This document shows positions 1 through 58,732 of a stretch of DNA of 64,000 bases, piece by piece. How positions within the stretch are numbered: the stretch's first letter is position 1; each line of letters begins with the position of its first letter. The stretch covers positions 144,398,001 through 144,462,000 of the forward strand of contig OZ024741.1 in assembly GCA_964016885.1 (NCBI GenBank), in the 5' to 3' direction. The stretch is from Eledone cirrhosa (taxonomy: Eukaryota). The position numbers were made by a program, and so were the translations under genes. The notes under the pieces are model-generated. The model had not been told where the DNA came from, ran no database searches, and worked only from the letters and a program-made list of their open reading frames with translations.

Positions 1-927
1 CCCTCTGCTCTATTTTTCTCTATTGCTAAAATCTTACTAAACCTAATGGACTCTATTCCAATTGCTCTTTTCAGAGCAAACCACCACTTGTTGTTGACGA
101 TGGCCCCCGTCAACGCCCGCTTAACTAGTTCGCTAATCCGGTCTCTGTAGGCCTTGCGCGCTGGAAAGGACGCGTTTAGCTTCCAGTAGCCGGGTCCTCC
201 TCTATGAAGCCTATCTAATTCAAGCACACAGATCACGTATTTGTGGTCCGTGTAGCTGACTATCTTGAATTGTGGACAGCCTATGCTAGACCTATCTATT
301 TCTCTGCAAAATACTCTATCTAGATATGATATGGATGACCCTATGCGATTTGTCCAAGTCCACATTGGCACATTCGGGAAATCCAATCGGTACCTGTCAG
401 ACAGTTCAAAACGCCTGAGCAGGTTGGTGAGGCTCTTGCACCCTCCTCCCCTATCCGCTAATCCCACACAGTCCAAGCGTACATCTAAGATCCCGTTCCA
501 GTCGCCCACTAACACTAAAGAGCGGGATGTTCCAAGAAAGGTCTCCAGACGCCGGAAGAAATCAGGTCGCCCTGTTCCTGTCGGGGCATAGACGGCCACT
601 AGCCTGAAAGCTTGCCCGTCTCCGCTGGTCACGTCTAGCACCACCAACTTACCTTCTGGGTCCAGGAAGATGGCCCGTATGGCGAAATCCAAACCTCTCC
701 GAAAAAGCACAGCAACTCCCCCCCCCCCCCGATCCCGGACGGCTGTGAGATGCGTACACATCGTAGCCGCCGAAGATCGGTGCGAAGGCCCGTGCTTCGG
801 AGATTCTGGTCTCGCTGATGGCCACTACATCTATGTTTAGTGACCTGAGGTCGTTGAGCAGGTGGCCCTGCTTCCATGACGACCCCAAGCCACGCGCATT
901 TATGCTGCCTATTCTGAGTGAGGTCAT
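1..927 (-). pseudogene. LINE ORF2 N-terminus (AP endonuclease), frameshifted
   Basis: ORF 649..927, continued in other frames, shows the APE motifs. Confidence 0.85.
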
Positions 928-961
928 GTTGAAATGGAGTGGAATAGATGGGAAAGACCAC

Positions 962-2884
962 TTACCTTACTTCTCGTAGAGGAAGGATGGTTTGTCCATC
1001 CTTTTCACTGCTTGTGGCCTCCTCCGGAAGGATGTCCTCATAAATCCTCCTGGAGAGTGTTTGTCGGAAGTCTCCGATGTCTTTGGGGAATTTTTGTTTT
1101 AGTGTCATGTACGTTTTCTGTGTGATGCGAGTGATTTGTATGTGTGGAGGTGGTGTGAATTTTGGGGTTGTTGTGTAGTCTTTTTCTGTGATGCTGGTGT
1201 TGTGTTGGATGTAGTGTAATAATTGCTTGTTGTTCAAATGTAATGCTGTGTAGTGTGTATCGTTTTGGTTGTTTTGTTTTGTTTGCGTTTGTTGTGGGTT
1301 TGTTTCTGTTACGCTTTTTGATGACTTTTGTGGTGTTGGTTATGGTGGTGTTGGGGTTAATGATGGTGATGGTGTTGGTGTTTGTGGTGATTGGGTTGGT
1401 GATGCTGGTGTGGATGGTGGCATATCTGTCCTAACGTTTTTGTTTGATAATTTATTTGTTTCCCTCTGTATTTTGTTTAGGAGGGGGAAGGAAGAGAGTT
1501 TTTTCTGTTTTGGTTTCTTTTTTTTTTTTTCCTGATACCGTTTCCCACTCCTCGTCGTCACAATCTGTCTCCAGTTGCGATAAGCCGGGGAGTGGAAAAT
1601 CCTCCACAGGCGTTGGTTTTGGTTGTGGCGTGGTGGATGGTGTAGGCGCTGGTGCTACTTCTGGCGCGTTGGGTTGTGGTGGTGTTGGTTTTGCTACTGT
1701 TGCTGGGGTTGTTGCTGTTACAGTTGCTTCTGTTGTTGCTGCTACAATTGTTGCTGCCATTTCTGCTGCTGGTGGTGTTGATGGTTGAGTCACTGGGGTG
1801 GGTAAGAGAGGTGGCCTCAACCTTTTAGCCTGAGGGCAGAAATCCCTTAGGTGGGTTCCTTCACCACAAACGACACACCTAGGCCTTCTGCCCTCGACGA
1901 TTACGGTGAGGTGGCTGCCGTCAGTGTGAGGTATATTACCTCTGGGATCTCCTCAATGCTTTTATGGTCCGCTTGGATCAGGAGCTCCATCCCAGATCCG
2001 GACTAGTTCTCCTGCTTTTCCTTCGCTATTTCAATTATCTTGGTGTTGGCCTCGATGCTGGCGAGGACGGCAGCCATTAGCCAGGGAATTTCGATGGCCG
2101 GTGGAACGTGGGTCACCCTGATCTTCACAAGTCTCTGGCCACAATAGCTTGGGACGAGTGTGAAGTCGTCACTTCTTAATGGGGCCATGGAGTGTTCTCT
2201 GGCCTCCTGTGGTGTTTCAAAGAACACGTCCACGGTTCCATATTTCTGCCCACGTCTGATGTGGGTTTTTTTTGCCCACACATGTCCCAAAGCTTTTTGG
2301 ATTTGGGACTCGGATGCCCGTTCCACTCGGTGCGATTTTATGTTAATTGTCCGATATACATGGTGCATAGGCGCCGATGCTGCATTTTATTAGGTGGGGT
2401 GGGGGTGGGGTGGCTGACCCTGTACCCATCTTTCTTTACCATTCCTTTGGCTTCTTCTAATTCCTCCTGAGTTACCTGGATCGTTTCGCACGTTTTTGCT
2501 ACTCTGGCAAAACTCAGGGTAGTTTTCTTAATTTCATTGTTGCTGTTATCGTTATTTTTGTTATTGTTAATTTTAGTTTCAGTTGTGGTGGTGGTGGCGT
2601 CAGTGGTGTTCGGTGTGGAAGAGTTCATTTTGGTTGAATTAATTTCGATATCACGAGTTAATTTATTTTTTTCTTTTGTTTCTGTTGTCGCTGTGGTGGT
2701 GGTGGGGTTGCGGCTTTAACACCTGCAGTCATTGGTAATGGCGGGAAATGAACGTCTGCCTGAGACAAATTTAAAATATTGCTACTGCTTACATTTCCAG
2801 TGTTGGCAAACGTAGCAATATTTACAATGGTGGTGTCGTGTGAGGTGTTAGATTGTGAGGAAGGAGTGACTCTGCGTCATCCAT
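962..2884 (-). pseudogene. LINE ORF1 (gag-like, zinc knuckle, Pro/Thr-rich C-terminus), frameshifted
   Basis: ORF pieces 2338-2628, 2003-2368, 1452-1820 and 962-1237; CX2CX4HX4C knuckle at ~1840-1880. Confidence 0.8.
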
Positions 2885-9133: not shown

Positions 9134-10634
<1,501 letters not shown>

Positions 10635-20424: not shown

Positions 20425-23400
20425 TTTTCTCTTTCTCTTAATTTCGAGTATATTTTTTTGACCGGCCACCTTCCTGGTGGCAAGGTTGTAAAAGAAAAGA
20501 AATTGTCATCCCTTGAATCGCAAGAATGTTTTGCAAATTTTGAAGGTGCCAGCTATCGCAGCCATTTGTAGACTATGAATTAGGGAGCTGCGCTTTTTGT
20601 CCGCAAATCCAAGTTCAGTCATACTTTGGTCCAAGCGGGTTGGTATATAATCCGTAGCACCAATAATGATGGGTATGAAGCTAAAGGTGTATCTTGGATA
20701 CTGGATTTGTAAACTCCTCATCAATGGTCCGTAGATGTCCTCCTTCTCCTGTATTTTTCTGACAACGTTTACATCAAGTGGGCAGCTGATCTCCACAACA
20801 GAACACGTTTTCAATGTGTGGTCCCAAACTACAATATCAGGCCGGTTGTGCTTTAATTTGGTGGCAGTTTTTATTTTTAGGTTCCACCAGTATTCCTTAG
20901 TGCCATCTGTCTCAATATATTCTTCCTCGTTTGTTGTTAATTTTGTTTTCCGAAGTGCGTTCCAGATGGTTCTAGCTATCCCATCGTGTCTCATGGGGAG
21001 GTAGTAGCGAGATGACATTCTTTCGCAGCTGGCAACAATGTGGCTTACATCCTCGATCTTTGTTTTACATAGCCTACATTTATTGTCAGCTGCTGGCCCT
21101 CCTCTTTTGTGCAGCAGATATTTGGTAGGGAGTTCTTGTTCCTGTATTGCATAGAGATATCCCTCAAGGTGTGATGTCATAAACTTGTCGGAACTCCATG
21201 CCAGGCTTTTTGAGTGGTTTATCCCCTCTATGGTCTGTGTTTTACGCCTCAAGTATCCATGCACAACTTTTTCTGTAAATTGGTCAATTTTTTTATCTTG
21301 TTTGAACATTGAATAGGATCTTCCGATTTCTCTGGGTGAGAGATTTATATCAGGCTTTATTCCATATCTCTCCTCCAGATCAGTCGCTATTCTAATGATA
21401 TTTCTTTTTTCATGGTCATAAACCTGGGCAAGATGGTTGCCAACCTTTTTCCTCTGTTGAAGGTGTTGCTTCAGTGTCACTATCCGGGTCTCATATGTTG
21501 TTAATATTGATTTTAGACCCCGGCCACCTTCCTTGCGTGAGAAGTATAGCCTATCCACATCACCATTGATGTTAAAGTTGCCAGTACACTGAGAAGTTTT
21601 CGAGTTCTAACATCCATCTCACTTAGTTCTTGCAATGACCAGTTCAGTAGGCCAAATGTTGGCGTTAGAATTGGCACAGCATAAGTATTGTGGGCAATGT
21701 ATTTGTTGTATGCTGACAGTTCTGATAACCATATTTTCTTTACTCTTCTGAGGTATTCAGTTCTGGTTCTCTCCTTATTTATGGGTCCATCATATCTGAT
21801 ATTCTCATCCTGTCCAAGATATCTGTAGTTGTCACCTGACTGCAGAGGTTGTATTATCAGGCCGTTCATCTCTAGATTTCTAGAGGAGGGCACAGCTCTT
21901 CCACGTTTTACTGCCAAATATGCACACTTGGACTCACCAAATTTAATTTTGATGTCGGTTGAAAATTATGTAATGAGGTCCAATTATTTCTTGATGTCAT
22001 TGATATTTGGCCCATACAACTTCAGGTCATCAACAAAGAAAAGATGGGAGATACTTCTGGTCCCACTTCTTTGTCCACCTTGTTTCCTGAGTAGGTAAGA
22101 TAGTGGATTCAGTGAGAGAACGAAGAGTAGCACTGACAAGCTATCACCCTGAAAGATGCCTTTCTGGTAATGTATCTTATCAGTCTTAACCTGCTCCTTC
22201 TCACCTCTAAGGATCAAACTGGTGTACTAGTTCTTGGTCAGGCGTTCAACAGCAGCTACCAAATGGTTGTGGGACTTTAGCTAACTGTAAAGCCTTAATA
22301 ATCCACCCATGAAGTACACTATCAAATGCTTTTTGATAGTCCAACCACACGACAGTCATGTTTCTGCGATTCTTTGTTGTTTTTTCCTGAATCATTTTGT
22401 TAGTTAGTAGGTGATCTATGCAACCCCACACCTCCCTCTTTCCACCAGCTTGCTCAGGTGTTATGATGTTGTTGGTAGCACAGTGATCCTGTAAGAACAG
22501 GTTAAGGCACCCAGTATATAATTTATACATGATGTTTTGGCAGGCAATTGGGCGGTAATTTTTAGCAAGGGTGGTTTGGCTATTTTGGGGAATGAGGAGA
22601 GTAGAGGCAGTTGATAACCATCTGGGCAGTTCTTGTGTGCCCTTAATGGTTTCTGTAAACAGCCGTATGAGATCTTGCCGATAGAAAGTGAAATTCTTCA
22701 ACCAGTATCCTGTAATGAGGTCTGGGCCTGGCGATTTCCTATTCGACATTTTCTGTAGAGCTGTTTCCAGTATTGACCCATCTACGTCATATTGTTTTGT
22801 CTGGACATGTTGGCAGTAGTCCTGTTCCAGTTCTTTTAGCCAATTAGCTTGTGTGTTGAATCCGTCATCCGTTTCCCATACAGATCTCCAGTAGCTCTCA
22901 ACCTGTTCTTTTGAAGGGGTGTCATTTACAGAGATTGAGCTTTTGCCACCGAAGCTGCGATAAACTGATTTAGGATCTCTGGCAAACAATCTATTTAGCA
23001 CTTGTCGTTTATGTGCTGTTGACTTATATTTTAGTCTTTCTGTTGTAGCTGTGAGTTGTTGTTTCAACTGGTGTAATTTGGAGTTCAAAGTTTTAAATTT
23101 TGTATCTCCAAATCGTCTCTCTAACTTTTTCTTTAGGTCTTCCTGGTGTCGTATGAAGTTGCTCTCTATGTTGCATTTCATAACGACTGCGATGTGTGAG
23201 ATACTTCGTCTCAGGGACAAAATTTTGGTTTTTAAATTTCGCATCCACGCTGGTTCAGGCTTTCTGTTTGTATCTTGATTGCGTGGTTTTAGATGTGTGT
23301 TATATGATAGCAATGTGACAGCTGAAACATATAACAAAACATTAAGCGTTTCAAATGTCGTTTCTACACCTTTAGATCGTATAGCCTTCAGATAATTGCC

Positions 23401-24620
23401 AGCTATTTCGTTCACCGCTTCCAATTCCAATTTAGTGGGTTCTTTACTGACTCTAGTGTTGTATGGTCTGTCACTCACATTAAGGCTGTGTATCTCTTGA
23501 AACATATCGTTCCATATCACTTGTAGGGAGCCCACAAGTTTTTGGTGCTCTGTTTGTTCAGTAGAGTCATGAATTTCAGCCTCATTGTTGATGTGGTGAC
23601 AATTACTACTAGAGTCAGCTGACCTTTCTCGCTGTTCTTCAGTGGAAGTGGGATGGATTTCAGCAAAATTGTTGGTGAGCTGTTCACTGTTAGATTTAGC
23701 TGGCCATTCTCTTTGTCTTTCAGTGGAGGTGGGGTGGTTGTCTACAAGGGCTGTATTTGTAGTATCACTCAATTCCGTTAGATGTATCAATTTACATCTA
23801 ATGATACGTTTTGCCTGTTCATTTAAATGCTTTGGAGAAAAGTCTAATTCTGGGTGTTTGGAGTTCCATAAAGTTTTTAGCCTTTGCATAAAACCGAACT
23901 TTTGGGGTTCAGATTGTTTGTATGCTTCATATAATACTTTGTTAAGCTCGTAGCTCCACTGTGTACAACGGTTGTAATTGCGATTTGGTCGAAGGAGACT
24001 TGTACTTTTTGCCATGATGAGTTCGTCTATTCACTAATATTTCGTATTTATTTTTCAAAATAGTCGATGATCTTCTTTAAAAGTTACGACAAAGTTCTGT
24101 TAGAATCAAATTTAAAGTTATTCACAGCTTGGGTAATATTTCTTTTCAGTTAGTTTTTAATTCTACAACTGTGTTTTAAATGTTGCTCTTGAATCGTTTG
24201 AATCGAGAACAAAAAGAACCGTTACTTAGTATATTCCTTTATGAATGTAATATAATATAACAACGCTGTATTTATATGTTAAAGTTTATGTATCATTCAT
24301 ATAAATAGGTGTTCTACAGCCTATTCACAACATAGTCACAGTTCAAACACTTATATTTTTGTTTCTGAATCGAAAACGTTACTTGTATATTTCTTTATAA
24401 ATGTAATATAACAACGTTGCATTTATATGTTAAAGTGTGTGTATCGTTCATATAAATAGGTGTTTTACAACACACTTACAACACACTTACATGAATTATT
24501 GTATGTAATCTTACCGCGTAATGTAGCTCAACTTTTTCCAATATATGGTATGTTGCCTTCATGTAAGCCGTAATTACACACGTCCGATTATCGGACACTG
24601 ACCACAACGGTCGCCATTTT
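20425..24620 (-). mobile_element. Near-full-length R4/Dong non-LTR retrotransposon (family A)
   Basis: A single frameshifted ORF (24015-20506) with RT and restriction-like endonuclease; (TACA)n at both ends. Confidence 0.92.
20506..24015 (-). pseudogene. R4/Dong polyprotein (RT, CCHC finger, PD-(D/E)xK endonuclease), frameshifted
   Basis: SPGPD, NYRPI, DYQKAFDS, GIFQGDSLS, FFVDD, YRYLG, CRLC..HIVASC, RHD, RPD..VVEISCP. Confidence 0.9.
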
Positions 24621-24865
24621 ATGTATGTATGTATGTATGTATGTATGTATGTATGTATGTATGTATGTATGTATGTATGTATGTATGTATGTATGTATGT
24701 ATGTATGCATGTATGTATGTATATATGTATATATATATGTATATGTATGTATATGTATATGTATGTATATGTATATATATATATATATGTATATATATAT
24801 GTATATGTATGTATATGTATATGTATGTATATATGTGTGGATATATATATGTATATATATATCTT

Positions 24866-25280
24866 CCGGGAGAGATGACCCCTTAGCCTTTGTCAAGGCA
24901 GAATTCTAGGAGAAGGAAAACTCTGATATAACACCTGCAACCCTGATGGTATCCAATGATGTTGACTTGTTCTTCTTTTTGGTAAATATCATCTTGGTTA
25001 AGAGAGTGGGACTGGCTTTCTGCAGTGCCTTTGCTCACTATAAAAGCTTCACGGCACAGGCATTGCTTTATATCTGGAGATGTCTCTGCACTTGTCATCA
25101 CATGGTACCATGTGCCCAGCACTATGTGTCAGTAATTGTCACAAGTGTAGTGTTTGTACCAGAGTTTTCAAGTCGCTGGCTGGACTAAAAAGTCACACTC
25201 GTTCAGCGCATCAGTAGGGGTTCTCCTACATGGATACAAAGTAGTGGCCGTACTCGAAAACGAGTTGGCAGCCACCACCA
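24866..25280 (+). mobile_element. Short RTE-like non-autonomous element, 5'-truncated
   Basis: Near-identical to 9333-9746; microsatellite on both sides. Confidence 0.7.
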
Positions 25281-25306
25281 TGTATGTATGTATGTATGTA
25301 TGTATG

Positions 25307-28300
25307 TTCTTCTGGTTTTATAATTTCACAAAGTATTACCACTAGAGAGAGAGTCGGTTTCTAACATAGACACAAGACTCTCTCATTGGAATTTACACAA
25401 CATCATCTAGGTAGATATGTATGTATGTATGTCTGCATGCATGTGTAGATATGGATGTTATTGTATGTGTGGATGTGGATGTTTTGAGTTGTATGTGTGC
25501 ATGTGTATATGCTTTGTATCTGTACATGTGTATATGCAGTTATTAGATGCAAAATATTTGGAATGTTTTACATATTTTTACTGTTCCATTAATGGATTGT
25601 ACTTGTAGTTTCCTAACTAGTCGTGTTCTTTCTGTTCCTGTGAAGCCTAGCTTCTCAAGATTTGTATTGAGGCAGTTACTAACATATCCCAGTGCCCCAA
25701 TGATCACAGGCATAAATCTGAAGGTGTAATCAGGGTGGAGTATCTGCAGATTTCTCATCAGTTCTGCATAAATATTCTCCTTTTCACTAATCTTTGATAT
25801 TATATTGGCATCTGATGGGCAGCTAATTTCCACTACTGTGCATGTTTTCTTCTCCCTGTCCCATATAATATCTAGTCTGTTATGCCTGCATTTTATTGGG
25901 GTTTTTACTGGAACATTCCACCAGTACTCTTTCATATTATGTACATGGATGTCTTCCACATTGTTGTAGCTTTTAATGTGTTTATTATCGGGGCTATCTT
26001 TTTTACGAACTGCATTGTACAGTGTTTTGGCCACTACATCATGTCTCATAGGTAGATAGTACCGCGATGACATCTTTGGGCAGCTGCTGATGACATGGGT
26101 GATATCCTAGATGTTAGTTCTGCAGAGTCTGCACTTGTTATCACATCTAGGTGTTTTGCCTGCATCCCTATCTCTTTTGTGAATCAGGTATTTCGTGCTA
26201 ATCTCCTGTTCTTGGATTGCAAAAGCGTATCCTTCAAAGTGGGAGCCAATATAGCGGTTGTTGGTCCAAGATAGACTACTTTCCTTATCTATATTACTCT
26301 CACTCTGGAGCTTCCTGGCAACATATCCATGCATGATTTTTTGCTGATAGGCATGCAGTTTTTCATCCATGGATTCACTGCGATACTGCTGAGTGACATC
26401 CCTGGGTGTGAGTTTTTGATTGTCACACAGGGAATATCTCTCAAGGAGTTCCTTCCCAACTCTCATGATCTTATCTGTTTCATGCAGATAAACTTGCTCG
26501 AGAAGCGGGCTCCTACGCTTCGAGATTCGTAGATGTTGTCGGAGAGATATGATGCGACATTCAAATGTTGTCTAGACTGATGTTAGGCCTCTGCCTCCCT
26601 GCTTACGTTTCAAGTAAAGGCGGTCTATGTCACTGTTGATGTGGAAGTTTCCGGTGTTATTCAGTATTTTTCGAGTTCCAACATCAACTGCTCGGATTTC
26701 GTCTATTGTCCAATTGAGTATTCCAAACGTAGGTGTTAGGACAGGCACAGCAAACTACATTGTGAGCCACTGTTTTGTTTTGCGCAGAGAGTTCCGATGA
26801 CCAGATCTTTCTTAATCGGGTGTAGTATTCCCTGGTTACGCGTTCTTTATTACAGATACCATTATAGGTTATGTTCTCATCTATCCCCAGGTATCTGTAG
26901 CAGTCCTCATCAGATATCGGTGAAACAGTTAGACCATTGATGACAATGTTGCTAGATTGGGTTGTTGTTTTTCCCCGCTTTACAGTCATGTATGAGCATT
27001 TATCTTGGCCAAACTCCATTCCTATATCCTTTGAGAACGTTGTAACCAGGTCAAGATTTTTCTTCATCCCATCCATGTTCTTGGCATAGAGTTTCAGATC
27101 GTCCACAAAGAAGTTATGGGTTAGGTTCGTATTTCTGTCCTCCTGTGAGCCAATGATGTATCCCTCACATTTCTTGAGCAGAAAGGACAAGGGGTTTAAT
27201 GACAAGATGAACAATATCACAGAGAGACTGTCCCCCTGAAATATACCCCTGCAATATTTTATTTTATCAGTGATAATAGAGTCCTCCCTCTCTGTCTTTA
27301 ACCTTAGGATAAAGAAGAAGACAGCCTCTCTATGGCTCTGACAATAATGTCTGGGACTTTAGCAAGTTGGAGGGCCTCTATCATCCAAGAGTGGGGAACA
27401 GAATCGAAAACTTTCTTGTAGTCCAGACAGACTGTAGTCATATTCCTCCTAAGTTGTCGCACCTCCGACATCGTAGTTTTGTTGATTAGGAGTTGTTCAG
27501 CACATCCCCAAACTCTTTTCTTTCCAGCTGCTTGTTCATCTGTGATGATGTTATTATTTTCACAGCGATCTTGGAGGAATAGGTTCAGGCAGGCTGTATA
27601 CATCTTATACATTAGGTTCTAGCATGCAATGGGTCGGTAGTTTTTTTGCCAAGTGGGTGTCTTTGTTCTTGGGGACCAGTAACGTTTTTGCTAATGTCAA
27701 CCATTCTGGTATAAGTGTATCTCCATTAAGAACTTGTTGGTAGAGGTCAGTAAGATACCCCCGATAGAATATTAGTTTTTTGTACCAGTAGCCGACAATC
27801 ATGTCTCTTCCTGGTGTTTTCTTATCTTGGAGTTTTCCTATCACAGTCTCACGGGTACCCTCACTTATTTCGTATGTTTTTGTTGTAGTGTAGGAGCAAT
27901 AGTTCTTTTGGATTTCTCTTAGCCACACTGCATCTTGGTTGAAATTCTTCTTTTCACCCCATATTTTTCTCCAAAAGGAATCTAAATCTTTCTGGGATGG
28001 AGCCTCAGTGACACTTATTATTTTGCCCTTCATATCTCTATAGACTGATGTTTGGTTTCGTCTGAATCTTTTATTAAGCATCTTTCTCTCATCTACCTTT
28101 TTCAGGTATCGGCGTTTTTCGCTAACAGCTCTCAATTCTTGTTTGTGGGTGATCAGCTTATATTGAAGAGTTCTGGTTCTACTGTTACCAAACATCGTCT
28201 CTTTTTTATTTTTCACTCTTTGTTGGTGAGGAGTGCGGTTTTATTGTGTTTGCATGCAAGGAGCATTACCACATGTCCTATGTTTTTTCGTAGGTCAGCA

Positions 28301-29416
28301 CTCTTTTTTTCTATTTTAGTTATATATGATGGTATTTTTGGTGGTGTTTTGTTCTTGTTAATATCTCTGCAATCACCCACCAAGATAATGCTTCACTGTC
28401 ATTGCTAAGGCATATAAACAGGCGTTGATTTGCCAAAATGTTGGAGTTTTTATCCGTCGTAAATATTCATCCTCTATTTCGTCAATAACAGGTAGTATTT
28501 CATTATTTGGTTTTTTATTCACCATTGTCATTTTAACACGTTCAGCCAGAGAGATATTTATACATGAGTTAATTTCTTTCTGGAAGATTTCGTTGAGGGA
28601 AATTTTCAATTGTTTATACTTTTGATTATAATTATCGATAGTATTTTCCACAACAGTCGAGGTAGACTCAGATGGTATACGTGGTGTCACATTTATTCGA
28701 TTATTATTATTATTTCTTCGATTATTATTATTATCGATAGTGTTTTCCCCAGTATTCGAGGTAGACTTAGATGGTACAGGCATAGTTGTTTCAAGGCGCT
28801 GTTCGACCTGGCTGCTAGGAAGTCTAGTAGCATGGCGACCTGTAGCACGTGTTGTTGATTCCATGTTTGTTGTGGGGGACTTACAATTAATAATATTTAT
28901 CTTATTTTTACGTTCAACAAACGTCGCTTGTTGGCGTAATTGTTTCGCTGTGAAATAATTTAGCTCTGGGTGCATTTCGTCCCAGTGTAGCTTCATTCTA
29001 TTCATATAGCCAATGGAGGGATTGTTTTTTACCATTTTATAACAATTAAATAAATCATTATTATGTTTGCAGCTCCAAGAGAAATGTGATTTATTATTTC
29101 GGTTTCTTCTGTAGCTACAACTGAATAAAGTTTGATTACCTTCTTTGTTATTTGTCTTCGATACTTCCTTAATTTTCTTGTTGATGTTGTGTTCAGCCAT
29201 GCTGTTTGTAGCAAATCCTTGTAAAATGAATTATGTATTTAGTCGGATATCTCTACGAATTCGAATAAAAGGTGTCTTCAGAAGGGATAGTTAGAAGAAT
29301 AACCAGTTATTCAACCTGGCTGTAGTTGTGGCATTACTGTCGGAGATAGTATTCATCTTAAATTTAATAAATAGTCTCCCACGCCAAAATATGCGACTGA
29401 TCGCGTTAACTGATGG
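25307..29416 (-). mobile_element. Near-full-length R4/Dong non-LTR retrotransposon (family B)
   Basis: Broken ORF 29200-25543 with RT and REL motifs; (TACA)n at both ends. Confidence 0.92.
25543..29200 (-). pseudogene. R4/Dong polyprotein, multiple frameshifts and stops
   Basis: DYKKVFDSVPH, QGDSLS, FFVDD, YRYLG, CRLC, RHD, VVEISCP. Confidence 0.9.
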
Positions 29417-35936: not shown

Positions 35937-37905
35937 CACCGTGTAACAAAAAAAATTTTTTCTCTGTTCCTGGCTTGTAATCACTTTTTTGTGTTGCTTA
36001 GGTCCCAAATAAATAAAAAAAGTGCTATTAAACAGTTAAAAGTTTGGGTTTGTAAAAATTCTAAGCTATTTACTAGAATTATTTGTATGTTGGATGTTAC
36101 GTTGTATGTAAGTTTAATTTGCTAATGTTAAATGATTTTTTTCTATATGTTTCAGGTTAAATTAAAATTATAAAATAAAGAGTAATACCTAAAGAAAATT
36201 ATAAAAGGGCAATAAAGTATAACATTGTTAAAAAGTGGATTAAAGAGATTTATTGATACTGGATTTTCGCACCCTGAATAAAGGGTAAGTTGTGTTTTAA
36301 GCACGAATTTTCATTAGTATGATTAGTGTTCTTTTATATTATTTAAATATGTATTTCCATTTCCAATATTTATTTTGTATTGCATATCAAATTTATTTTC
36401 CAAGACAAATATTCTGATGAAGAGGAGGAGATGGATGCTGAGGACTTGAATTACTTGCCTTGAGGTAGCAGAAAAAGTTCCTCACTTCCCAAACCAAAAA
36501 GAAGTCAATGACCAAGTCCAATGCAGAGCTATTCGTCTCCAGGATGAAGCAATGGAACTTTGTCAAGGAGGAAGTACAGTTGACAAATCAGAGAAGTCGA
36601 CACGAACCTTTCTCAGGCTTTTACGCTCTTAGGGATGGCCTCTGCTTCTGCCATGACGTGTCTGGACTGTTTGACATTATTGGGGTGCCGTTTGTGCCCA
36701 AGGAGTGGCGGCTATTTATAGACAACTCCACCACAAGTTTGAAGGCTGTCCTCCTCCACAATGGAAACAAGTTCCCGACACTGCCCCTAGCTCATTCAAT
36801 CTGCCTGAAGGAAGATTACTACAGTGTGAAAGTCCCCTTGGAAGCTCTGCAATACAACGAGTGCAATTGGGAAATCATTGGAGACTTCAAGATGGTGGCT
36901 TTCCTGCTTGGACACCAAGGAGGCTTTATCAAATTCCAATGCTTCCTCTGCCTTTGGGACAGCAGAGGCACCTCTGACCACTACAAAAGAAAGAACTGGG
37001 AGCAGCGAACAGAATTTGTAGTTGGGACTCGGAACGTCATGTGGGAGCCACTGGTTGATCCCAGGATTGTGCTCATGCCGCCACTGCACATTAAGTTGGG
37101 GTTGATGAAGCAGTTTGTGAAGGCTCTCAACCAAGAATCAGCCGCTTTTAAGTACCTTTTTGAGTTCTTCCCCAAGTTATCTGAGGCCAAAATCAAAGGT
37201 GGAATTTTTGTTGGACCTCAGATAAAGAAGGTGTTTGAGTCTACCGAGTTCTCCAATAAGCTCAATAGGATTGAGAGAACAGCATGGAACTGTTTCAAGG
37301 CAGTTGTTAAGGGCTTCCTGGGCAACTACAGAGCTGAAAACTACCAGCAACTGGTGCAGGATCTGATAAAGGCTTTTGGCGCCATGGGATGCAGGATGTC
37401 GCTTAAACTCCATATGCTGGATGCTGACCTGGAAAAATTCAAGGACAATATGGGCGCCTACTGAGAAGAACAAGGCGAACGATTCCACCAAGATGTGAAA
37501 GAGATAGAGCGGAGGTATCAGGGCCAGTACAATGAAAAAATGATGGGGGACTATATCTGGAGGCTAGTGCGGGAATGCGACCTGGACTACAACGGCAAAT
37601 CCAGGAAATCCAGTCATTTTTGACGTGTATAAGTTGCTTTATAAGTGTTATTTGTTTTTACTTGTTTGCGTTTGATAAGCTTGTGTAATAAAATAAATAT
37701 ATACTCTGTTGATTTAATTATATGAACTGATAAATAAAAAAAAAATGTGTTTTTTCTTGAAAAATATGAAAATTTCGAAATATCAAACTCCTGACCACAA
37801 ACCCAAACTTCTGATTAAATAACAGTGTTTTTTAAATAATAATGGGATATAACAAACCATGAAATGACACTTAGAACCGGGGAAGAAAAAATATGTTACA
37901 CGGTG
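35937..37905 (+). mobile_element. Chapaev3-like (CMC superfamily) DNA transposon
   Basis: Perfect 12-bp TIR CACCGTGTAACA; 3-bp flanks TTA/TTG; transposase ORF inside. Confidence 0.8.
36508..37623 (+). pseudogene. Chapaev3-like DDE transposase, N-terminally deleted, premature stop at 37464
   Basis: WRLFID..SLKAVLLHNGN, GDFKM, CFLCLWDSR and PPLHIKLGLMKQFVKAL; EEQGERFHQD continues after the stop. Confidence 0.8.
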
Positions 37906-43853: not shown

Positions 43854-46800
43854 ATATTAATTCAAAATAGTAACAAAATAGATATTCTTGTGATCAATTA
43901 TATTGTATTATACATATTTCAGAGGTACTGAGTTAAGTTCAACAGTACGTCCTCATCAGATAAAATAAAATGATACATGACAGACCCTGACATAGTAGAT
44001 GGTTAAGATTCAGTCATGGTAGTGATTAACTTATGACAAAACTCAATATTTATACCCTAATATTGAGAACATGAGTATTGGACCCGCTCAGATAGAAATA
44101 GAAACTTCGTCATTACCATGGGATCTTCTGATTCAGCGCAAATCACGGATCTTCTGGGGATTTCATCTTAAATATGATAAATAGAAAACTGCCGGAGATT
44201 ACCGGTGGTTTATATAGGGACGATATTTTATTTACGGTTGTTAAACACAACAATATAGAACTAATTAGAGTAAAGAAAAATATAATTGAATTCTTTAAAA
44301 ATTACGACCTTAAACTAGAGGTAGAAAGTGGTACCAAAATAGTTAATTTCCTTGATGTTACCCTTAACTTAAACTCGGGTTTTTATTACCTTTTCCATAA
44401 GTCCAATAAAAACTTAAATTACGTTAGTTATTACTTTAATCACCCTAAATCTGTAAAAAAAGCAATTGTAAATAGCGTACAAAAACGCATAAATAGAATA
44501 TCTGCCAATAAATCAATCTTTGATGAAAATGCAGGATATTACAATGACGCGCTAAAAAGACAGGTTATAAAACTAATATAGAATATATAGACAGTAATAA
44601 TCCGAGTCTTAATCCTGATAAAAAATAATGGCATATATAAACGAAATTCTATAAATTCTAATAATTGTAATTCAAACACCTGTACTGTGAATAAATCGGG
44701 GAAAAGAACCACAACTAAATCAGTTATATGGTTTGCCCCCCGCCCCCGCTTCTGTAGCAGTAAGAACACCAATAGCTAATCTATTTTTTAAAGCTTTAGA
44801 TAGTTCATTCCCTAGTCAACATAAATACCACTCCATATTTGATAGACACATAATTAAACCGTCTTATTATACAACAATGAATATGGCCCAAAACATCGCT
44901 AAAATAAACAGTATAATTCTAAACCCAAATCAACATAATGATATTAATAATAGTGTTAATATAAATAATAACAAATCAAAATGTAATTGTAGAAATAAAC
45001 CAGATTCCACTCTGCAAAATAATTGTCTGGATAGAAATCTGGTGCACCGTAAAAACAAATAACAACACATACAACTATATAGGAGCAACTACTTCGACTT
45101 TTAAATCGAGATTTGCGAATCACAAATGCTCATTTTCGAATTTTAATAGGAAGTCTTCGACTTCTTTATCACAACTTATATGGTCATTAAAAGACAAAAA
45201 TTTAAAATACTCGATCTTTTGGACGAAGCTTTGTAATAGTAAAATATATACCAACTCATCCATATCAATTAACTGCAACCTCTGTACAAAGGAGGCCCTA
45301 TTAATAATTACTAATTATGAAAACTTAATTAACAAAAAAAGTGAATTATTCTCAAACTGCCTTCATAAAGCTTTGTTTACATTCCAAGTCTCGCAAAAAG
45401 TCAGGAAAAAACAGTAAACAATCAGGCCTGATTTTTGACGTTTCTTATCAAAAAAAGTCATAACGGTTTATAAAACTTTAATAATGCTTTATCTTCTAAT
45501 CATGATAGAATGAAGGACACTCGTTTGATAACTTGTTTACTTGATAGATATTCATACCTTATGATCTTTTGGATATTTATAATTTTGATTCAGATATGTA
45601 TTTATCTGTCTCTGTTTTAAATATATAGTTTGGATATTTGTAAATTTACTGATTATAATTGAACTGTGGATCATTCATGCGTTTCGTATTTTATTTTATA
45701 TATTTTACTAATTTTGAGTATGTTTTGGGGGACTCAGTAAGTTAGATTTGCATTTGTTTTTTTTATGTATATCTAGGTATAAATATAACAAACCATATCA
45801 GCCGACACATATTGGTCTATCTCTCCACTGAACTGTAGGTAAAACTACATTTATAGCATTACTAATAATGATTATAATTATTATTTTTTATTAAACGTAT
45901 GCCGTTTCATTAATACCTATATATAGTTGTACAGATATCTTTATCTAGTGTAATAACATAATCGTAGTTACATTTATAAATAATTTAGACACTCAAATGA
46001 CTTTATATTGTTATAAGTGTTTGATATTCCCTGGAAGGTCGAACTTATATAATCATTTACTTAATATGATATAATTTAATTTAACTTATTTTATTTTATT
46101 TTATTTTAATTAAAATTAGATTACCTTCGACTTTTTCAAATATTTAGCTCCTCCTTATATCACATTCGCTAAAATATTTTAGATATATCTTTTCTATACT
46201 ATATTAAAACCCTATTGCATTTAGAATATATTTTTAATATCGGGCATCTTCAAGTTTCGCAAACAATTCATTTTCTTTTATTTGTATATTTATTTTGTAT
46301 CTAACCCCTATCATTAAGACTCATATAGTTTTGACTTATATCTTTATAGTATATATCAACTAAATGAAAATAATTGATATAAAACATTAATTCTTTAGCA
46401 ATATTTTTAACAACATTTTTAACTATATATATTTTTGAACAATATTTTCAGTAACTTATTTACTTTATTGCATTATTGCATTATTGTATTATATTATATA
46501 TATTTGAAAAGTATCACCTCAATTATAAACAAATAATAAACTATAATCTTTGTATTCTTTGATCAATACATATATATAATTAAAAATTTGGACTTATTTA
46601 TGTTTAGTTATAAGGCCGGTTGATACTTTAGGCACTCAAACTATTTAACAATAAATTCTTTAATAATTATAACTATAATTATTTTATAAATTATATTATA
46701 GAAACTGTTGTCAATATTATAAATAATTTTGGTAAAGATTACCTTCGTGAAGTTATAAAAGCATTATAGATATTTTCTTTCTCGTGTTTCGTAAATCCTT

Positions 46801-49934: not shown

Positions 49935-50262
49935 AGATGGGAGAGATAGATATAGATATAGAGAGGGGGGGAGAGTTTGGTGTTAATTGATATAGAGAGG
50001 AAATTGGTAGAGACTGTTGTATGGTTGATGTAGACAAGGGGAGCGTTTGGTGGCAATGAATAGAGCGAGAGGATTGATAAAGATAGGTATTGATAGATAT
50101 AGAGAGGGGGGAGAGTTTAGTAGTGATGGATAGAGTGAGAAGGAATGAGAGAGTGTCTGGTATGGTAGATGTAGAGAGGGGGATAGTTTGGTGGTAATTG
50201 ATATGGTGAGGTGGTTTGGGAGAGTGTGTTGATAAAGTGGGGAGGAGAAATTGATGTTTATT
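49935..50262. repeat. Degenerate GA-rich ~30-bp minisatellite, resuming at 55845-56200
   Basis: Recurring GATATAGAGAGGGGGAGAGTTT units on both sides of the LINE. Confidence 0.7.
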
Positions 50263-50509
50263 GATATATATTTCTATTTATTTGCCACCAGGGCATCAAA
50301 GATTGGGACAAATACAAAGGGGGGAGTTTACATACATTTAAAAAGACGTGTAAAAAACATATAACAAATTAAATTTAACAATCGATGTCCTCAATAGGGA
50401 GGGGCGTTGACATGGGTCGCACAGACCCTCGAAAAAATGTGCAACCCTCCTCTTCAGGAGCACACAGAGCGGGTGCTTCCTTCCTCTTCTCATTCTTCTC
50501 CTCTCTCAC

Positions 50510-53500
50510 CTACAGGCTGATATAGAGAGAAGGCCCATTCTCTCGGGTCATTCTCGCTACTTTCACCCATCTTTCATAAAACTTGCTGGGGTAGAGCACC
50601 TCTGTCTCCATTCTGATCCTTCTTCTAAAGTGGTACTTGAAAAAAAAGACCAGTTGTTGGCCGGCGAGATAGGTGTCTGACCTCAGCCCTTTCAACCTTG
50701 TCCACCATACAACTTCTTTCGCCATGGCTATCACACAGAGGAAAACACCGCCTCTCCGTTTTTGAAAGGGGGAGGCGGTTTGATCGTGACAATGTTCTCG
50801 GTGGTCAACCGGATTGGTCCCACCCGCGACAGTAGTCGTTCTACATAGCCCCACAGCTCAGCAACGCCCGGGCAGTGTACGAATGCGTGTGCGACGGTTT
50901 CCACGCCACGCACGCATCTTGGACAGATCTTCTTCGAGGGGCCCCTACCCGGGCGCCCGTGTCTGTAGAGCTTGTCCCGAACGGGTAAAGCTCCTCGGTA
51001 ACATTGCCAAGCCAGGGACTTTTGGAAGTTGTCCATCGGTCCCGGGCCAAACGTCCTACCGAACAGACTGGCCAGCTCGTCTTCCTCCATTACCCAGAGC
51101 CTCTCCGAGAGCGTCGTCGCACATACTGCGCACCAACCCTCTATAGAATGTTGAGGTTGAGTCTCCACTGATTGCCGGATCCGCTTGCCAGAGGGCCGTG
51201 AGCGCCTGGGCACATTCAATGTGCCAGTCGCCCATTTTTCTCGGTCTTTGCTTGACCCAGGATTGCAGCTCGGTGAGTGAGACGAGTCTCGGAAAGGCTC
51301 GCCTCACAAACAGGGCCCACACCGGCTGACCGGTGAGGAATACCTGGAGGTGCCGTAGCCTTAATGCGTGTCTTCGCATCGTCAGCCACGGCATCCCCAG
51401 CCCTCCGTTCGAAGGGTGTTGACAGCAGATGGATCTTCTCACCAAAGGAGCCTGCTTCTTCCAAAGAAATCGGAAGAGCGCGCGCTCCATTTTGGCGAGT
51501 GTTTTATCTGGGCAAGGCACGACGGTCAAGCGGTAGTAGATGACGGACGCTATATAAGCGTTCGCCACCTCCGCTCGACCTTTCAGAGATAGTTTGCACT
51601 CGGCCCACTTCTGAGCGAGTGCAAACACCTTGCCCGTTACCTCGTCCCAGTTTTTCTCCACCTGGAGGTCCGGTCCGAACCAGACCCCGAGCAGCTTCAC
51701 CGGTCCCTCTGTCCAGCATCCCACGATGCCGTCGGAGGGCATCGTTTTGCCCCTCCACGTCCCGAGTTGCAAACCGACGGACTTGTCCCGGTTCAGCTTG
51801 GCTCCTGTGAACCTTTCATATTCCTCCAGTAAGGTGCCGATCTGCCCGATTTCCGAGGCGCACGACACCATTACTATCACGTCATCGGCGTAGGCCGACA
51901 CCGCTTTCCGCAATCCCGGTTCCAAGGGGATGCCCTGCACAGCTCCAGCTTCCGCAGTAGTGGCTCGAGAGCCAGCACATACAGGAGGGAGGAGAGAGGG
52001 CATCCCTGTCGAATGGACCGCGTGATTTGGAACGGCTCCGAGAGGTAGCCGTTCACCTTGACCCTCGAGCAGGTGTTGCTGCTGAGCATTGCAGCAATCC
52101 AGCCCCTGAAAACGGGTCCAAAGCCTGCCGCCACGAGTACCGCATCCAGGTATCGATGGTCAACCCTATCGAACGCCTTAGATTGATCCAAGTTGATCAG
52201 GGCCCCACCAAAGCCGGGTTCGTTCCCTACCCTCTCTACGATGTATCGCATGAGGTGGAGGTTGTCGTGTATGGACCTGGACGGGATTGCGCATGTCTGC
52301 GCTTCTCCCACCAGGTTCCCAACGACAAGCGCCAACATCTTCGCTAACACCTTGGCCAAAATCTTTAACTCTGTGTTTAGCAGAGTTATGGGCCTGAAGT
52401 TATCTATGTCATCCCCCTTGTTCTCGTCCTTCCTCACCAGCGTGACTACGCCCTTGGTCACAGAACTGGGAATTCTCCCGTTCTGTTGCCAGTTGCAGTA
52501 GACCGCCTCGAGGAGACCGGAGAACAAGCCCTGCATCGCTACATAAAGTTCGTATGGTAGACCATCGAGACCCGGAGATTTGCGTTTGCCGCATTGGCTC
52601 AGCGCTTCCCCTATTTCAGCGGCTGAAATCGGCCTCTCGCAGGACTTCGCCTCCCCGTCCGAGAGCCGCGCCATCGTGGACTTGTTTCCACTTTTTGCCT
52701 CTGTCACTCGGGCCCAGCTAACAGCTTTGGCTCCCTCGTTACCCAGAGCACGTATTTTACTCCTGACAACGCAGCCCTCGTGCTTCGCATCAAAGAACTG
52801 GTCTAGGGCCGTTCTTGACGCCAGCACGCCGGCCACGTTTCCACTCCTAATCGCCTCTTCTACTCTATTTGTTAATTCCCTTTCAGTTCTATTCCTATCT
52901 GATGCTAATTCCCGACTAAAACCTATCGATTCTAATCTAATTTCTCTCTTGAGAGAGCCCCACCACCTGTTGTTGACAATTGCCCCCGTCAAACGCTGCT
53001 TAACTAGTGTGCTAATCCGCTTACTGTAAGCTTTGTTTGTTGGTAAAGACAAGTTTAGCTTCCAGTAACCGGGTCCCTGTCTATGAGTTATATTAAGGTT
53101 GACCACTCCGGTCACCAGCTTGTGATCCGAATAGTCAACCATGAACATTCGTGGACAGCTTAATATGTCCCTATCCTTATTTCTAACTAGGAACCTATCT
53201 AGGTACGACCTAGATGTTCCGCTGCGATTACTCCACGTCCACCGTGGAACAGTCGGAAAATCTAGTCGATATCTATCGGCCAGATCAAATCGGCCGATTA
53301 ATCGTTTGAGGCTGTTACACCCCCCTCTATCGGGACATGCCCCTACATAGTCCCAACGTGCAGGATACCATTCCAGTCCCCCACTAAAAGCAAGGAGCGA
53401 GACGTTCCCACGAAATTCTCCAGGCGTCGGAAGAAGTTCGGTCGCGGTGTCCCAGATGGGGCATACGCTGCCACCAGCCTGAAAGCTCCACCTTCACCAC

Positions 53501-53798
53501 TGCCGACGTCTAAAACCACCAGTCGACCCTCCGGGTCCAGGTGTACCTTCTGTGTGGCAAGACCCAGGTATTTTCGCAGCAGAACGACAACCCCACCCCC
53601 ACCCCTCGGCTGACAGAGAGATGCGTAGATCTCAAAGTCGTCGAAGATGGGGGCCAGTTGGCACTCGCTGCTGATCCTGGACTCGCAAATAACCATTACA
53701 TCCACTCTGTGCGACCTGAGGTCATTTAAGAGTTTGCCCTGTTTCCAGGACATCCCCAAGCCGCGTGCATTCACACATCCAACTCTTATATTGGCCAT
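50510..53798 (-). pseudogene. LINE ORF2 (AP endonuclease-reverse transcriptase), frameshifted
   Basis: NARGL, GDWN, SDH, SPGLDG, FRPITLLN, DQSKAFD, RQGCPLS, AYADD, CPRC..ETVAHAFVHC. Confidence 0.92.
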
Positions 53799-53840
53799 GT
53801 TGGTGCTGAAGAGTTAAAAAGGAAGAGGAAAGGAAATTAC

Positions 53841-55655
53841 TTACCTCTTCGTCTCCTGGGGACCAGGCTGCACAATTTCCATGGGGGTGTTGGAAGGGTT
53901 ATTTGGTGGGGTGGTGGTTTGTGGTGGGGTGAGGACATCAGTGTGTGGTGGGATTAGGGCGTTTGGTGGGGTGTGGGTGTCTGGTGTGGGGGTGGGAAAA
54001 CATCTCAATAGGACGCTGTTATGTAGTTTGGTGCAGTTGGTCCCACATGCATTGGATGGTTCTTTTTCAAAGTTACATAGGTTACCGTTGGGACCCTAAT
54101 CATCATTAGGTGCAGTTTGTTCTCTGCGTAGGTGAAAGTGATCCCTTCGGTTTCCACCGAAGGGTTATTTTCTATCGCTTTCATCAACGTTTTATTGTTC
54201 TTGTTAATGTATATATAGAGTTTTTATTGTGTTGTGTTTGTTTTTGTTTGTTGTTCTTGTGCGTGTTTGCGTTTTGTAGTACGTGTTGTTTTGGGGAGGG
54301 GCTGGTTTTTTTTATTTGTGATGTTTGTTCTGTTTGTGCTAGTGGTTGTGTGTTTGTGGCATTTTTGTTAATGTGGTGCCTTTTTTTTTTCCTTTTCACC
54401 TGTTGAAAGGGTTCTCCCTCGTCGTCACTGGGTGACGTTGATACGGAGTCCTCTTCCGTGTTGTTGGGGAGGGGTATATTTTGGGGTTTTGTTGTGGTTG
54501 CTTTTGTATTTGTTTTAGGTGGGGAGGGGTTGGGTGGAACAGTGTTTTGTGTTGTTATTTTTCCGTATTGTTGTGGTTGTTGTTATTGTGGTGGTGATGG
54601 TAGTGGTGTTGGTGGTGGTGGTGGTGGTTGTGTTGTTGTGTTCGGGGTTGGCAGAAGAGCCTTTTTTTTACTCGTTAATTGAGGACAGGCAGCTCTCAGG
54701 TGACCCCTGCTTAAGCAGTGGTAACATGACGGCCGCCTTCCCTCCACTGAAATGTTTATATAAGTTAGCCCGTCCAGAGGCACGCGTTGTGGGATATTCG
54801 CTATTCGTTCTGGGCTCATTTGCACCAGAACTTCTACGCTGGTCCCACCAAATACACACCCGGAGGACTTTCCTATTGAAATGATCTTGTCTTCGTCAAA
54901 GTCAATGATTCCACATAGTATCCACCAAATATTTACATTTGGTGTGATACTCATTATTTTTATTCTTTGTGTCCTTTTTCCGCTGTATGTGGGGAAAAAG
55001 GTGAAGCGAGGGGACACAATGGGTGATACCGAGTACTTTTGAGCTGTTGACTGGTTGTTCATTAGCACCGAAATGCTACCAAACAGTTTACCTTTCTGTA
55101 TGAAGGTTAAGTCCTTCATTGCATCTTTTAGAACCAGCTCAATTTCATTTTGTGATAATTGAGCTGGTTTTCTTGTTTCGTTCGATATTGTCCTGAAAAC
55201 CACAGTTTTCAGGACAGCCTCTCTACGTAATTCCTGTGGAGAATTGATGCTAAAAGCACCGTTTTCGCCAAAAGTCACGAATTGTTTTGCGTCTTGTAAT
55301 AGTTGTTTAGCATTTGTTATGTCTATTGGCGTGTATAGTTCGTTTTTTTTTACAGTCTGTGCGAATGTTGTTTTGGTGTTGTCTTTTTTGTTGCTGTCAC
55401 TGTTGGTAATATTGTTCATGTTTTCCTTGGTGTTGCTATTGTTGCAGTTGTTGGTTGTGGTGTTATTGTCATTGTTCTTGTTGTTGGTGCTGGTATTATT
55501 TACCGGGTTTGGTTTCGTGGTTTCAATACTTTTTTTAACGTTTTTCGATAATGCGAGGGGGGGAAGGCTGCAAGCTTTGTACTCCTACCTTCCCTCCACC
55601 ACTTTTCTTAGTGGGCGTGGCACTCACGACAGTGTGCGTGGTGGAAATGGCATCC
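53841..55655 (-). pseudogene. LINE ORF1 (zinc knuckle), frameshifted
   Basis: ORF 54583-55419 contains EGRRPSCYHCLSRGHLRAAC; a Pro/Thr-rich tail ends GPQETKR-stop at 53841. Confidence 0.85.
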
Positions 55656-57515: not shown

Positions 57516-58043
57516 TGAATAAATTGGGTATAATACCAGTTTCTTACCAAATGCGAAGAAGCTCGATATATTAACCCCTTAAGAAAGGACACAAAGCATA
57601 ATTTTTTTTAAATTATATATATACAGTAGCTGTAGAACACGGGTAGGGGGGGGGGGGCATGCCCCCCCCCTCCAATAATTATATTTTCTCCCCAAACTAA
57701 CAAACACACATCTATTTGGATATGCGCTACACTTTATGTACATGTTTTGTTTATCGCATATTGAAGTTTCCTGACTATTTTAGAGTGCAAAGAGATAAAC
57801 TAATCACTATAACTAAATTGTCCAAATTTGCCGCCCACAATTTTTTTGTTTTCTTACATGTGATAGAGATATTAACTATGTATTCGCCTAACTACTACGC
57901 TTCATACTGTAATTTACCCTCCGTTCTACTGTACGGTACTATCGTTCAATATGTAGATAATATATTTGTAATATTGATCCCACTTTCAAAACTTCTTACT
58001 ATAACTTAAACATCTCCCTATTTATTAGTTATTATATGTACAT

Positions 58044-58732
58044 CGGTAGAGGGTCGGACGCCATGCTTTCCAGCATAGTTACGTCCCTTTACGATCTGAG
58101 TTCAAATCCCGCCGAGGTTGACTTTGCCTTTCATCCTTACGGGGTCGATAAAATAAAGTACCAGTAATGCACTGGGTAATTGCTGGCCTTGTACCTAAAG
58201 TAGAAACAATTATATGTACATGTACATAGGGCGGTGAATTGGCAGTATCGGTAGAGGGTCGGACGCCATGCTTTCCAGCATACTTACGTTCCTTTACGGT
58301 CTGAATTCAAATCCCGTCGAGGTTAACTTTGCCTTTCATCCTTACAGGATCAATAAAATAAAGTACCAGTAATGAAGTGCGTAATTGCTGGCCTTGTGCC
58401 AAAAGTAGAAACAATTATATGTACATATATTTTTTTACTTACTTCAATCTAGATTCTAACTTGTAATTTTTTTAATTTTTAATTTTTAATTTTTAATTTT
58501 TAGTGTTAATTTCCAACTCTCATTCATAATTTCCACTGTGAAACCATAATTGTTTCTACTTTTGGCACAAGGCCAGTAATTACCCAGTACATTACTGGTA
58601 TTTTATTTTATCGACCCCGTAAGGATGAAAGGCAAAGTTAACCTCGGCGGGATTTGAACTCAGAATGGCAAGGGCCGTAACTCTATGCGTCAAAGCATGG
58701 CGTCCGACGCTTCTACCGATACTGCCAATCCA
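58044..58732. mobile_element. Cluster of three SINEs (58044-58208 +, 58228-58413 +, 58551-58729 -)
   Basis: Family motifs; flanking duplications ATTATATGTACAT (three times) and CCACTGTGAAACCATAAT (twice). Confidence 0.88.

Follow-up and report, generated by a model that had tools for sequence, protein, structure and literature searches.

A conserved 5′-splice-site-like motif at the ORF1–ORF2 junction of a LINE clade in Eledone cirrhosa, a candidate U1 docking site in unspliced RNA

The window, by which we mean the whole stretch of 64,000 nucleotides of Eledone cirrhosa DNA analysed here, comes from a host genome of 3.0 Gb and carries two related LINEs on the minus strand, at bases 1–2884 and about 50,250–55,650, with endonuclease, RT and zinc-finger domains. 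The features around their ORF1–ORF2 junctions are listed below, a slash marking the putative cut.

1..927, minus strand: 5′ part of ORF2 (APE endonuclease), family A1, with a frameshift in a G run near 721–731
914..916, minus strand: first downstream YAG (CAG), inside ORF2 codons 4–5 (Leu-Arg, first strand of the endonuclease)
928..959, minus strand: pyrimidine-rich spacer ending in CAAC, with no AG ahead of the ATG (from the sequence and the copies)
960..968, minus strand: 5′-splice-site-like motif AAG/GTAAGT, cut between 966 and 965, complementary in sequence to the host U1 5′ end
962..964, minus strand: ORF1 stop codon TAA within the donor motif, where a 461-aa open frame terminates in an intact copy
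962..2884, minus strand: ORF1, family A1, broken in this copy by stops and frameshifts, with a CCHC knuckle and a low-complexity tail
53796..53838, minus strand: spacer of family B1, with CAG at 53808–53806 and ATG at 53798–53796
53839..53847, minus strand: the same motif in family B1, GAG/GTAAGT, over the ORF1 stop

The start of A1 ORF1 (962..2884) was set by eye from a related copy, and in intact relatives ORF1 is open to the TAA of the motif, giving 461 aa in family A and 552 aa in family B. A1 ORF2 runs past the window start to the RT, the zinc finger and an (ATT)n tail. Pfam matches were PF03372, PF00078 and PF13966 for family B and PF03372 and PF00078 for the family-A fragment; two ORF1 pieces had no Pfam match, their CCHC pattern being visible by eye. 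Two characteristics of L1/Tx1-type APE LINEs are present, namely an ORF2 with endonuclease, RT and a C-terminal zinc finger, and a poly(A) signal with a simple-repeat tail (AATAAA followed by (ATT)n at the 3′ ends of A1 and A2). The name Tx1, given in the earlier reading of the sequence, is a provisional label here; a named Tx1 element is absent among the 120 ORF2 relatives listed, and Argonauta hians supplied the closest named protein matches among the relatives listed (59% and 67%). A repeat annotation of Octopus vulgaris describes 13 recently active L1-Tx1 families and, in the part of its text available, mentions neither ORF, intron nor any word in splic- (PMC13282606).

The ORF2s of the A element and the 53.8-kb element are 68% identical in DNA and 45% identical at four-fold sites; on these sequences the two are related, so they are not independent cases. 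Family A is abundant, with 4,761 exact matches to the ORF2 start, and the LINE family at the window start is young. Copies often lie head-to-tail at a spacing of about 6 kb and carry (ATT)n tails (e.g. contig C1, 55.43–55.45 Mb), and truncated C-type copies lie in (TATC)n, which together suggests microsatellite targeting. Elsewhere in the window, broken mobile-element ORFs (RT-like, transposase-like and Penelope-like by eye) were seen at 20,500–29,300 (minus strand), 9,800–10,600, 36,469–37,464, 44,100–45,400 and 62,100–62,900, and a 205-nt unit is tandemly duplicated at 58,042–58,426 with 92% identity.

At the A1 junction the original prediction had placed a donor over the ORF1 stop, and its minus-strand coordinates hold (AGG 967–965, TAA 964–962, GT 961–960, CAA 931–929, ATG 927–925, CAG 916–914). 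A cut of 52 nt, from donor position +1 at 965 to 914, does bring ORF2 into the ORF1 frame. The 53.8-kb element shares the motif at 53846–53839, as had been claimed, and its CAG at 53808–53806 gives a 39-nt cut, again in frame. A 37-nt alternative had also been proposed, with CAA at 931–929 as a decayed CAG. Of 1,646 candidate copies 40 were scored, and in the best 30 of these position 929 was A every time, never G; an AG ahead of the ATG was absent in the first 30 of the 4,761 unselected family-A copies; the CAA is therefore not a decayed CAG. A second perfect AAG/GTAAGT was observed within ORF2 at window positions 647–655 (minus strand) in A1 and also in D1, and was absent from the A2 copy scanned. 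In family B the ORF2 stop is followed by a donor-like TAG/GTGAG (window 50,530–50,520, minus strand) that family A lacks.

Related junctions were collected through downstream anchors that do not include the motif, namely an endonuclease pattern (467 matches), distant-protein queries and ORF2-start patterns; B2 and C were first reached by an ORF1-tail pattern, and M1 was counted by a pattern one base off (211 matches). This gave 15 junction types, A1, A2, D1, D2, K, B1, B2, B3, C1, C2, F, H, J, M1 and M2, with B2, B3, C2 and F represented by single copies; in the B2 copy the sequence immediately 5′ of the motif is altered. Loci with 5′-truncated or deleted junctions, or with no N-terminal match, were excluded (3 of 30 and 4 of 9 loci, and 1 of 30 elsewhere). 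All 15 subfamilies belong to one clade in one genome.

Within family A, positions 967–960 were invariant in the 30 best-matching copies. Among the first 30 unselected copies the donor was kept in 29, once as GTGAGT, and deleted in one; 12 of the 30 were of type A2, which has a different ORF1 tail and CG/GTAAGT, and in 11 of these the spacer was longer by one base. Across the 15 subfamilies, columns −2 to +6 agreed in 13, 15, 15, 15, 14, 14, 14 and 15 cases. At four-fold sites, 13 of 48 columns reached agreement in 13 of 15, identity between the two main branches (11 rows) was 39–56%, and the spacers were unalignable. The motif thus appears to be under selection, as had been suggested, its columns being shared by at least 13 of 15 subfamilies despite strong silent divergence. 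It spans four phase changes, is read as codons in J and M1, is retained where its TAA is not the ORF1 stop (D1, D2, J, M1 and M2), and always lies 27–54 nt upstream of the ORF2 start.

The host U1 was found, with a canonical 5′ end. Its predicted duplex with the site was −10.3 kcal/mol at 960..968, between −9.0 and −10.4 kcal/mol in 14 of 15 subfamilies, and −8.1 kcal/mol in K, where the motif is weaker with T at +5. In 13 of 15 subfamilies the site was the best or tied-best U1 match among the 96–136 GT sites within 1.4 kb, which exceeds what chance would give. The other intron-side variants were GTGAGT in B2 and GTAGGT in H, the latter also in 15 of 30 J copies. Both are common donor variants, so that two of the three intron-side changes, and with them the pattern of variation, follow the donor consensus.

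Outside the clade, a donor-like site at the ORF1 end was present in one of eight distant L1/Tx1-like junctions from metagenome contigs, and the motif is hence not general there. That one element reads G/GTGAGT with the ORF1 stop at +6 to +8, an arrangement as in D and M2. A first metagenome scan and a viral scan found nothing, and 34 random 10-kb stretches gave no new family junction. Family C at one stage seemed to read through the donor, a reading that was rejected, those copies being B/C chimeras and true C stopping at the TAA of the motif. A1 and A2 have a common ORF2 (97% over the first 900 nt) and different ORF1s, and chimeric B/C junctions also occur; in these sequences ORF1 is evidently swapped as a module near the motif. 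No description of a conserved splice donor at a LINE ORF1–ORF2 junction was found in the literature searched, subscription journals, Repbase reports and supplements being outside the search.

The relation of the motif to the reading frames was then compared between subfamilies. The donor lies in phase 2 in ten subfamilies, in phase 1 in D1, D2 and M2 and in phase 0 in J and M1, with four changes on the ORF2 tree. Because the offset between ORF1 and ORF2 differs by single bases (A1 against A2) and across all three frames, simple stop readthrough is excluded, as the original prediction had argued; the one-base difference between the A1 and A2 spacers rules out readthrough and is neutral for splicing. 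Cutting at the first YAG restores the frame in 6 of 15 subfamilies; if any AG may serve, cutting at the first one does so in 10 of 15, A1 and B1 (phase 2) and M1 (phase 0) among them. Six of these ten AGs, family A included, fall in one conserved Arg codon of the first strand of the endonuclease, and four of the six need an AAG acceptor; the coincidence of frame in them follows from the protein. Out of frame are D1, D2 and K, and also J and M2, whose ORFs are intact. The D type accounts for 21 of the 30 endonuclease-pattern loci inspected, and in D2 no AG lying within 100 nt of the donor is in frame.

Acceptors varied as well. The spacer has no AG in 9 of 15 subfamilies; in the remaining six its AGs occur only as YAG just past the pyrimidine tract, in frame in B1, B2 and M1 and out of frame in K, J and M2. 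In family A a YAG is found only inside ORF2, YAG positions differ between subfamilies, and the candidate branch column of B1 is polymorphic (12 A and 18 C of 30). The putative introns, at 30–55 nt, are below a human length threshold of 65 nt, which may not be that of the host, and introns of 37–65 nt exist (PMC4463651). As regards a U2-type intron, a U1-complementary 5′ site was found, while a conserved YAG, a conserved phase and loss of the intron from copies were not. Against an unspliced reading, the cut precedes the ORF1 stop in every one of the 15 subfamilies, and this, together with a YAG after a pyrimidine tract, resembles a real intron; the stop position could just reflect a T-poor ORF1 tail that reaches its first stop in the motif.

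Human L1 RNA is copied preferentially in cis, and spliced copies make up about 1.8% of full-length insertions (PMC5860796). We therefore searched for intronless copies, genome-wide for A1 and B, in a test that assumes for these LINEs the cis preference shown for human L1. The proposed family-A spliced junction had no match at up to one mismatch. Of 1,404 exact A1 exon ends, 1,336 continued with GT, 46 had another base at +1 and 22 at +2. Inspection of 66 of these 68 variants revealed point changes or small indels in every case, no spliced end and no copy joining ORF1 to a distant acceptor; the other two were covered, for the proposed junction, by the mismatch-tolerant search. Splicing at the proposed site was thus seen in 0 of 1,404 A1 ends (95% upper bound 0.21%). 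In family B all 39 exon ends with a base other than G at +1 were inspected and none was spliced. An acceptor with GT after it would escape the A1 count, and one with G after it the family-B count.

Among contigs from runs of unrecorded kind, which are given no weight as evidence here, no joint at the donor was seen in 15 of 88 and 15 of 27 listed for A1/A2, and two such contigs cross the junction uncut. A search with the endonuclease protein gave two matches, neither fused to ORF1; the longest of the 120 ORF2 relatives listed has 1,320 aa; and in a weak test no fused protein carrying the ORF1 tail was found among 68 longer candidates.

Subfamily J (603 exact matches; an example lies on contig C11 near 11,303,490) differs in its ORF2 start. 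Its ORF1 passes through the motif and ends at a TAG overlapping AUA, which stands at the position of its relatives' AUG in 30 of 30 unselected copies. The first AUG in this frame comes 35 codons downstream, beyond the conserved N-A-R-G-L motif. In many copies the ORF2 frame is open over 1,166 aa, ORF2 itself having 1,145 codons, and a copy-to-copy dN/dS of 0.35–0.41 indicates that ORF2 appears still to be under selection. A 39-nt GT–AG cut would leave J out of frame. Lacking an ORF2 AUG and with a stop over AUA, J needs non-AUG reinitiation or a −1 slip, and its sequence points to termination–reinitiation at AUA (A at −3, G at +4) or to a −1 slip on A-AAA at the stop. J would then offer an example from nature of ORF2 expression that does not depend on AUG. 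Stop and start lie within about 50 nt of one another in all 15 subfamilies and overlap in J.

The anatomy of J, which is of the coupling type, and the constant placement of the motif ahead of the ORF2 start would both suit a rather unlikely alternative, in which the motif belongs to an element that couples translation (a ribosome or protein site, or a sequence pairing loosely with the pyrimidine spacer in a stem) and resembles a U1 site by coincidence. Coupling in SART1 relies on RNA structure (PMC5972666). Here, the motif paired a little more strongly with its own spacer than with swapped spacers (p = 0.019 over 11 related rows, the row named B2 being a B1 point mutant), and hairpins beat spacer shuffles in D1, D2 and F (z −4.2, −4.3 and −2.9). 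No such excess was found in A1 (z 0.04), A2, B2, C1, H, J, K and M2, B1 and C2 being borderline, and z was negative in just 9 of 15 subfamilies; moreover, variation in the motif tracks the donor consensus. A universal hairpin was rejected, the donor core being predicted to pair in most subfamilies but equally well with shuffled pyrimidine spacers. For the donor motif, TURBS-like pairing with 18S rRNA found no support: the host 18S holds no exact complement of it, and the best wobble duplex, at −10.6, is not exceptional next to 40 shuffled 9-mers, whose mean was −8.7 and minimum −11.3. The host 18S match is about 2,870 nt long, for a model of 1,831 positions, which implies large expansion segments.

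Readings in which the donor is used differ in what becomes of the product. Occasional splicing to out-of-frame, distant or host acceptors could act as an attenuator, the spliced RNA having no functional ORF2p and so not being copied. This unlikely reading accounts for the missing intronless copies and is consistent with a strong donor in 14 of 15 subfamilies, with the YAG past the pyrimidine tract in six (out of frame in K, J and M2) and with the splicing of human L1 RNAs at internal sites (PMC5860796). It is opposed by the nine subfamilies without a spacer AG, by intron lengths under the human threshold (PMC4463651), although the host limit may differ, by the absence of copies with a distant acceptor among the 66 A1 variants, and by the nearest A1 and B1 products, which are in frame and should have been copied, none being found. 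That a minority of transcripts loses a 30–55-nt intron over the ORF1 stop, with a fusion or stop–start overlap product copying unspliced RNA in trans, is in our view quite improbable. If true, such gating of RT by the spliceosome would be a foamy-virus-like strategy, for which no LINE description was found in the literature searched, and would break the rule of cis preference. The narrower form, in which the product is an in-frame fusion of ORF1 and ORF2 acting in trans, is very improbable. The first AG in frame in 10 of 15 subfamilies (A1, B1 and M1 included), the stop always inside the putative intron and the tolerance of spacer indels speak for it. D1, D2, K, J and M2 are nevertheless out of frame, six of the ten in-frame cases derive from one Arg codon (four of them on an AAG acceptor), no intronless copy was found, and the model needs a trans preference. 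The in-frame splice of the original prediction thus fails against three donor phases, a first YAG in frame in only 6 of 15 and no intronless copies, and as a clade-wide mechanism it is, on sequence grounds, already contradicted.

Finally, the motif may have no function of its own and reflect shared ancestry and stop-codon context, a highly improbable account. TAAG is a strong stop context, all 15 subfamilies come from one clade and one genome, and only one of eight distant junctions has a donor-like site. Yet eight adjacent columns hold where four-fold sites are 39–56% identical and spacers unalignable, and the motif is kept in the five subfamilies in which TAA is not the stop.

In every genomic copy inspected the motif is retained, without dependence on codon phase or stop position. 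The constraint lies on nucleotides and follows the donor consensus, unmatched by acceptor, phase or intron loss, so that a U1 docking site in unspliced RNA is the best reading; a near-perfect donor kept in 15 subfamilies with no copy cut is likely a docking site and not a fusing intron. We hold with moderate confidence, from sequence comparison, that the motif serves U1 snRNP as a docking place in unspliced RNA, likely limiting early 3′-end formation, with ORF2 likely made by translational coupling. U1 would bind the predicted site at the ORF1–ORF2 junction and, in what is the weakest step, might guard the RNA, which is 6 kb long and has no introns, against premature cleavage/polyadenylation or termination within the A-rich tail of ORF1. 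The short spacer and the weak or absent acceptor would keep actual splicing rare, and ribosomes finishing ORF1 would restart 0–50 nt away for ORF2. Poly(A) hexamers lie 190–560 nt upstream of the motif in A1, A2, B1 and C, four of the five elements scanned, in a region of 43% A, a composition at which they are expected anyway; the fifth, D1, has none upstream of the motif. The ORF2s of A2 and B1, as scanned, hold no poly(A) hexamers to suppress. The equally good second site within ORF2 of A1 and D1 counts against U1 protection.

The analysis bears on how LINE ORF2 is made from a two-ORF RNA and on what spares a long, A-rich RNA without introns from being terminated early. The clade amounts to a natural mutagenesis series, with 15 junctions, a constant motif of 8–9 nt, three phases, spacers of 27–54 nt and a family without an AUG.

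Reinitiation in human L1 tolerates non-AUG starts, and in Ty1/copia elements and for foamy virus pol, spliced subgenomic RNAs set the ratio of structural protein to polymerase. Ty1/copia elements and foamy virus have defined acceptors and detected spliced RNAs, whereas no acceptor is conserved here. Coupling has been described for silkworm SART1 and proposed for human L1 (PMC5972666; PMC3894237), and as in these the present LINEs have two ORFs per RNA, the stop of one overlapping the start of the other or lying near it (UAAUG in SART1, a 63-nt spacer in L1). The available text of those two papers mentions no splice-donor motif at the junctions, and J, unlike L1 and SART1, is a natural amplified family in which AUA is overlapped by the stop. 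In caliciviruses, reinitiation tolerates changes of the start codon (PMC5972666). The splice sites within LINE RNA recall the SpIREs, spliced human L1 copies whose RNAs undergo copying in cis and leave countable traces in the genome (PMC5860796). SpIRE splicing, however, deletes 5′ UTR or ORF1 sequence and is a dead end, whereas the present donor is conserved, with no spliced copies seen (upper bound 0.21%, against about 1.8%). The closest likeness is with foamy virus and HIV, in which a 5′ splice site is also retained in unspliced genomic retroelement RNA; their major splice donor is a U1-dependent suppressor of polyadenylation, U1 acts there independently of splicing, and RNA structure can mask the donor (PMC3694450). 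The present elements differ in being non-LTR, in having the site 2 kb inside at the ORF1–ORF2 junction and in having no duplicated LTR poly(A) site, and suppression in them is putative. Were the motif a U1 site, the retroviral trick of keeping an unused splice donor would have arisen convergently in a non-LTR element.
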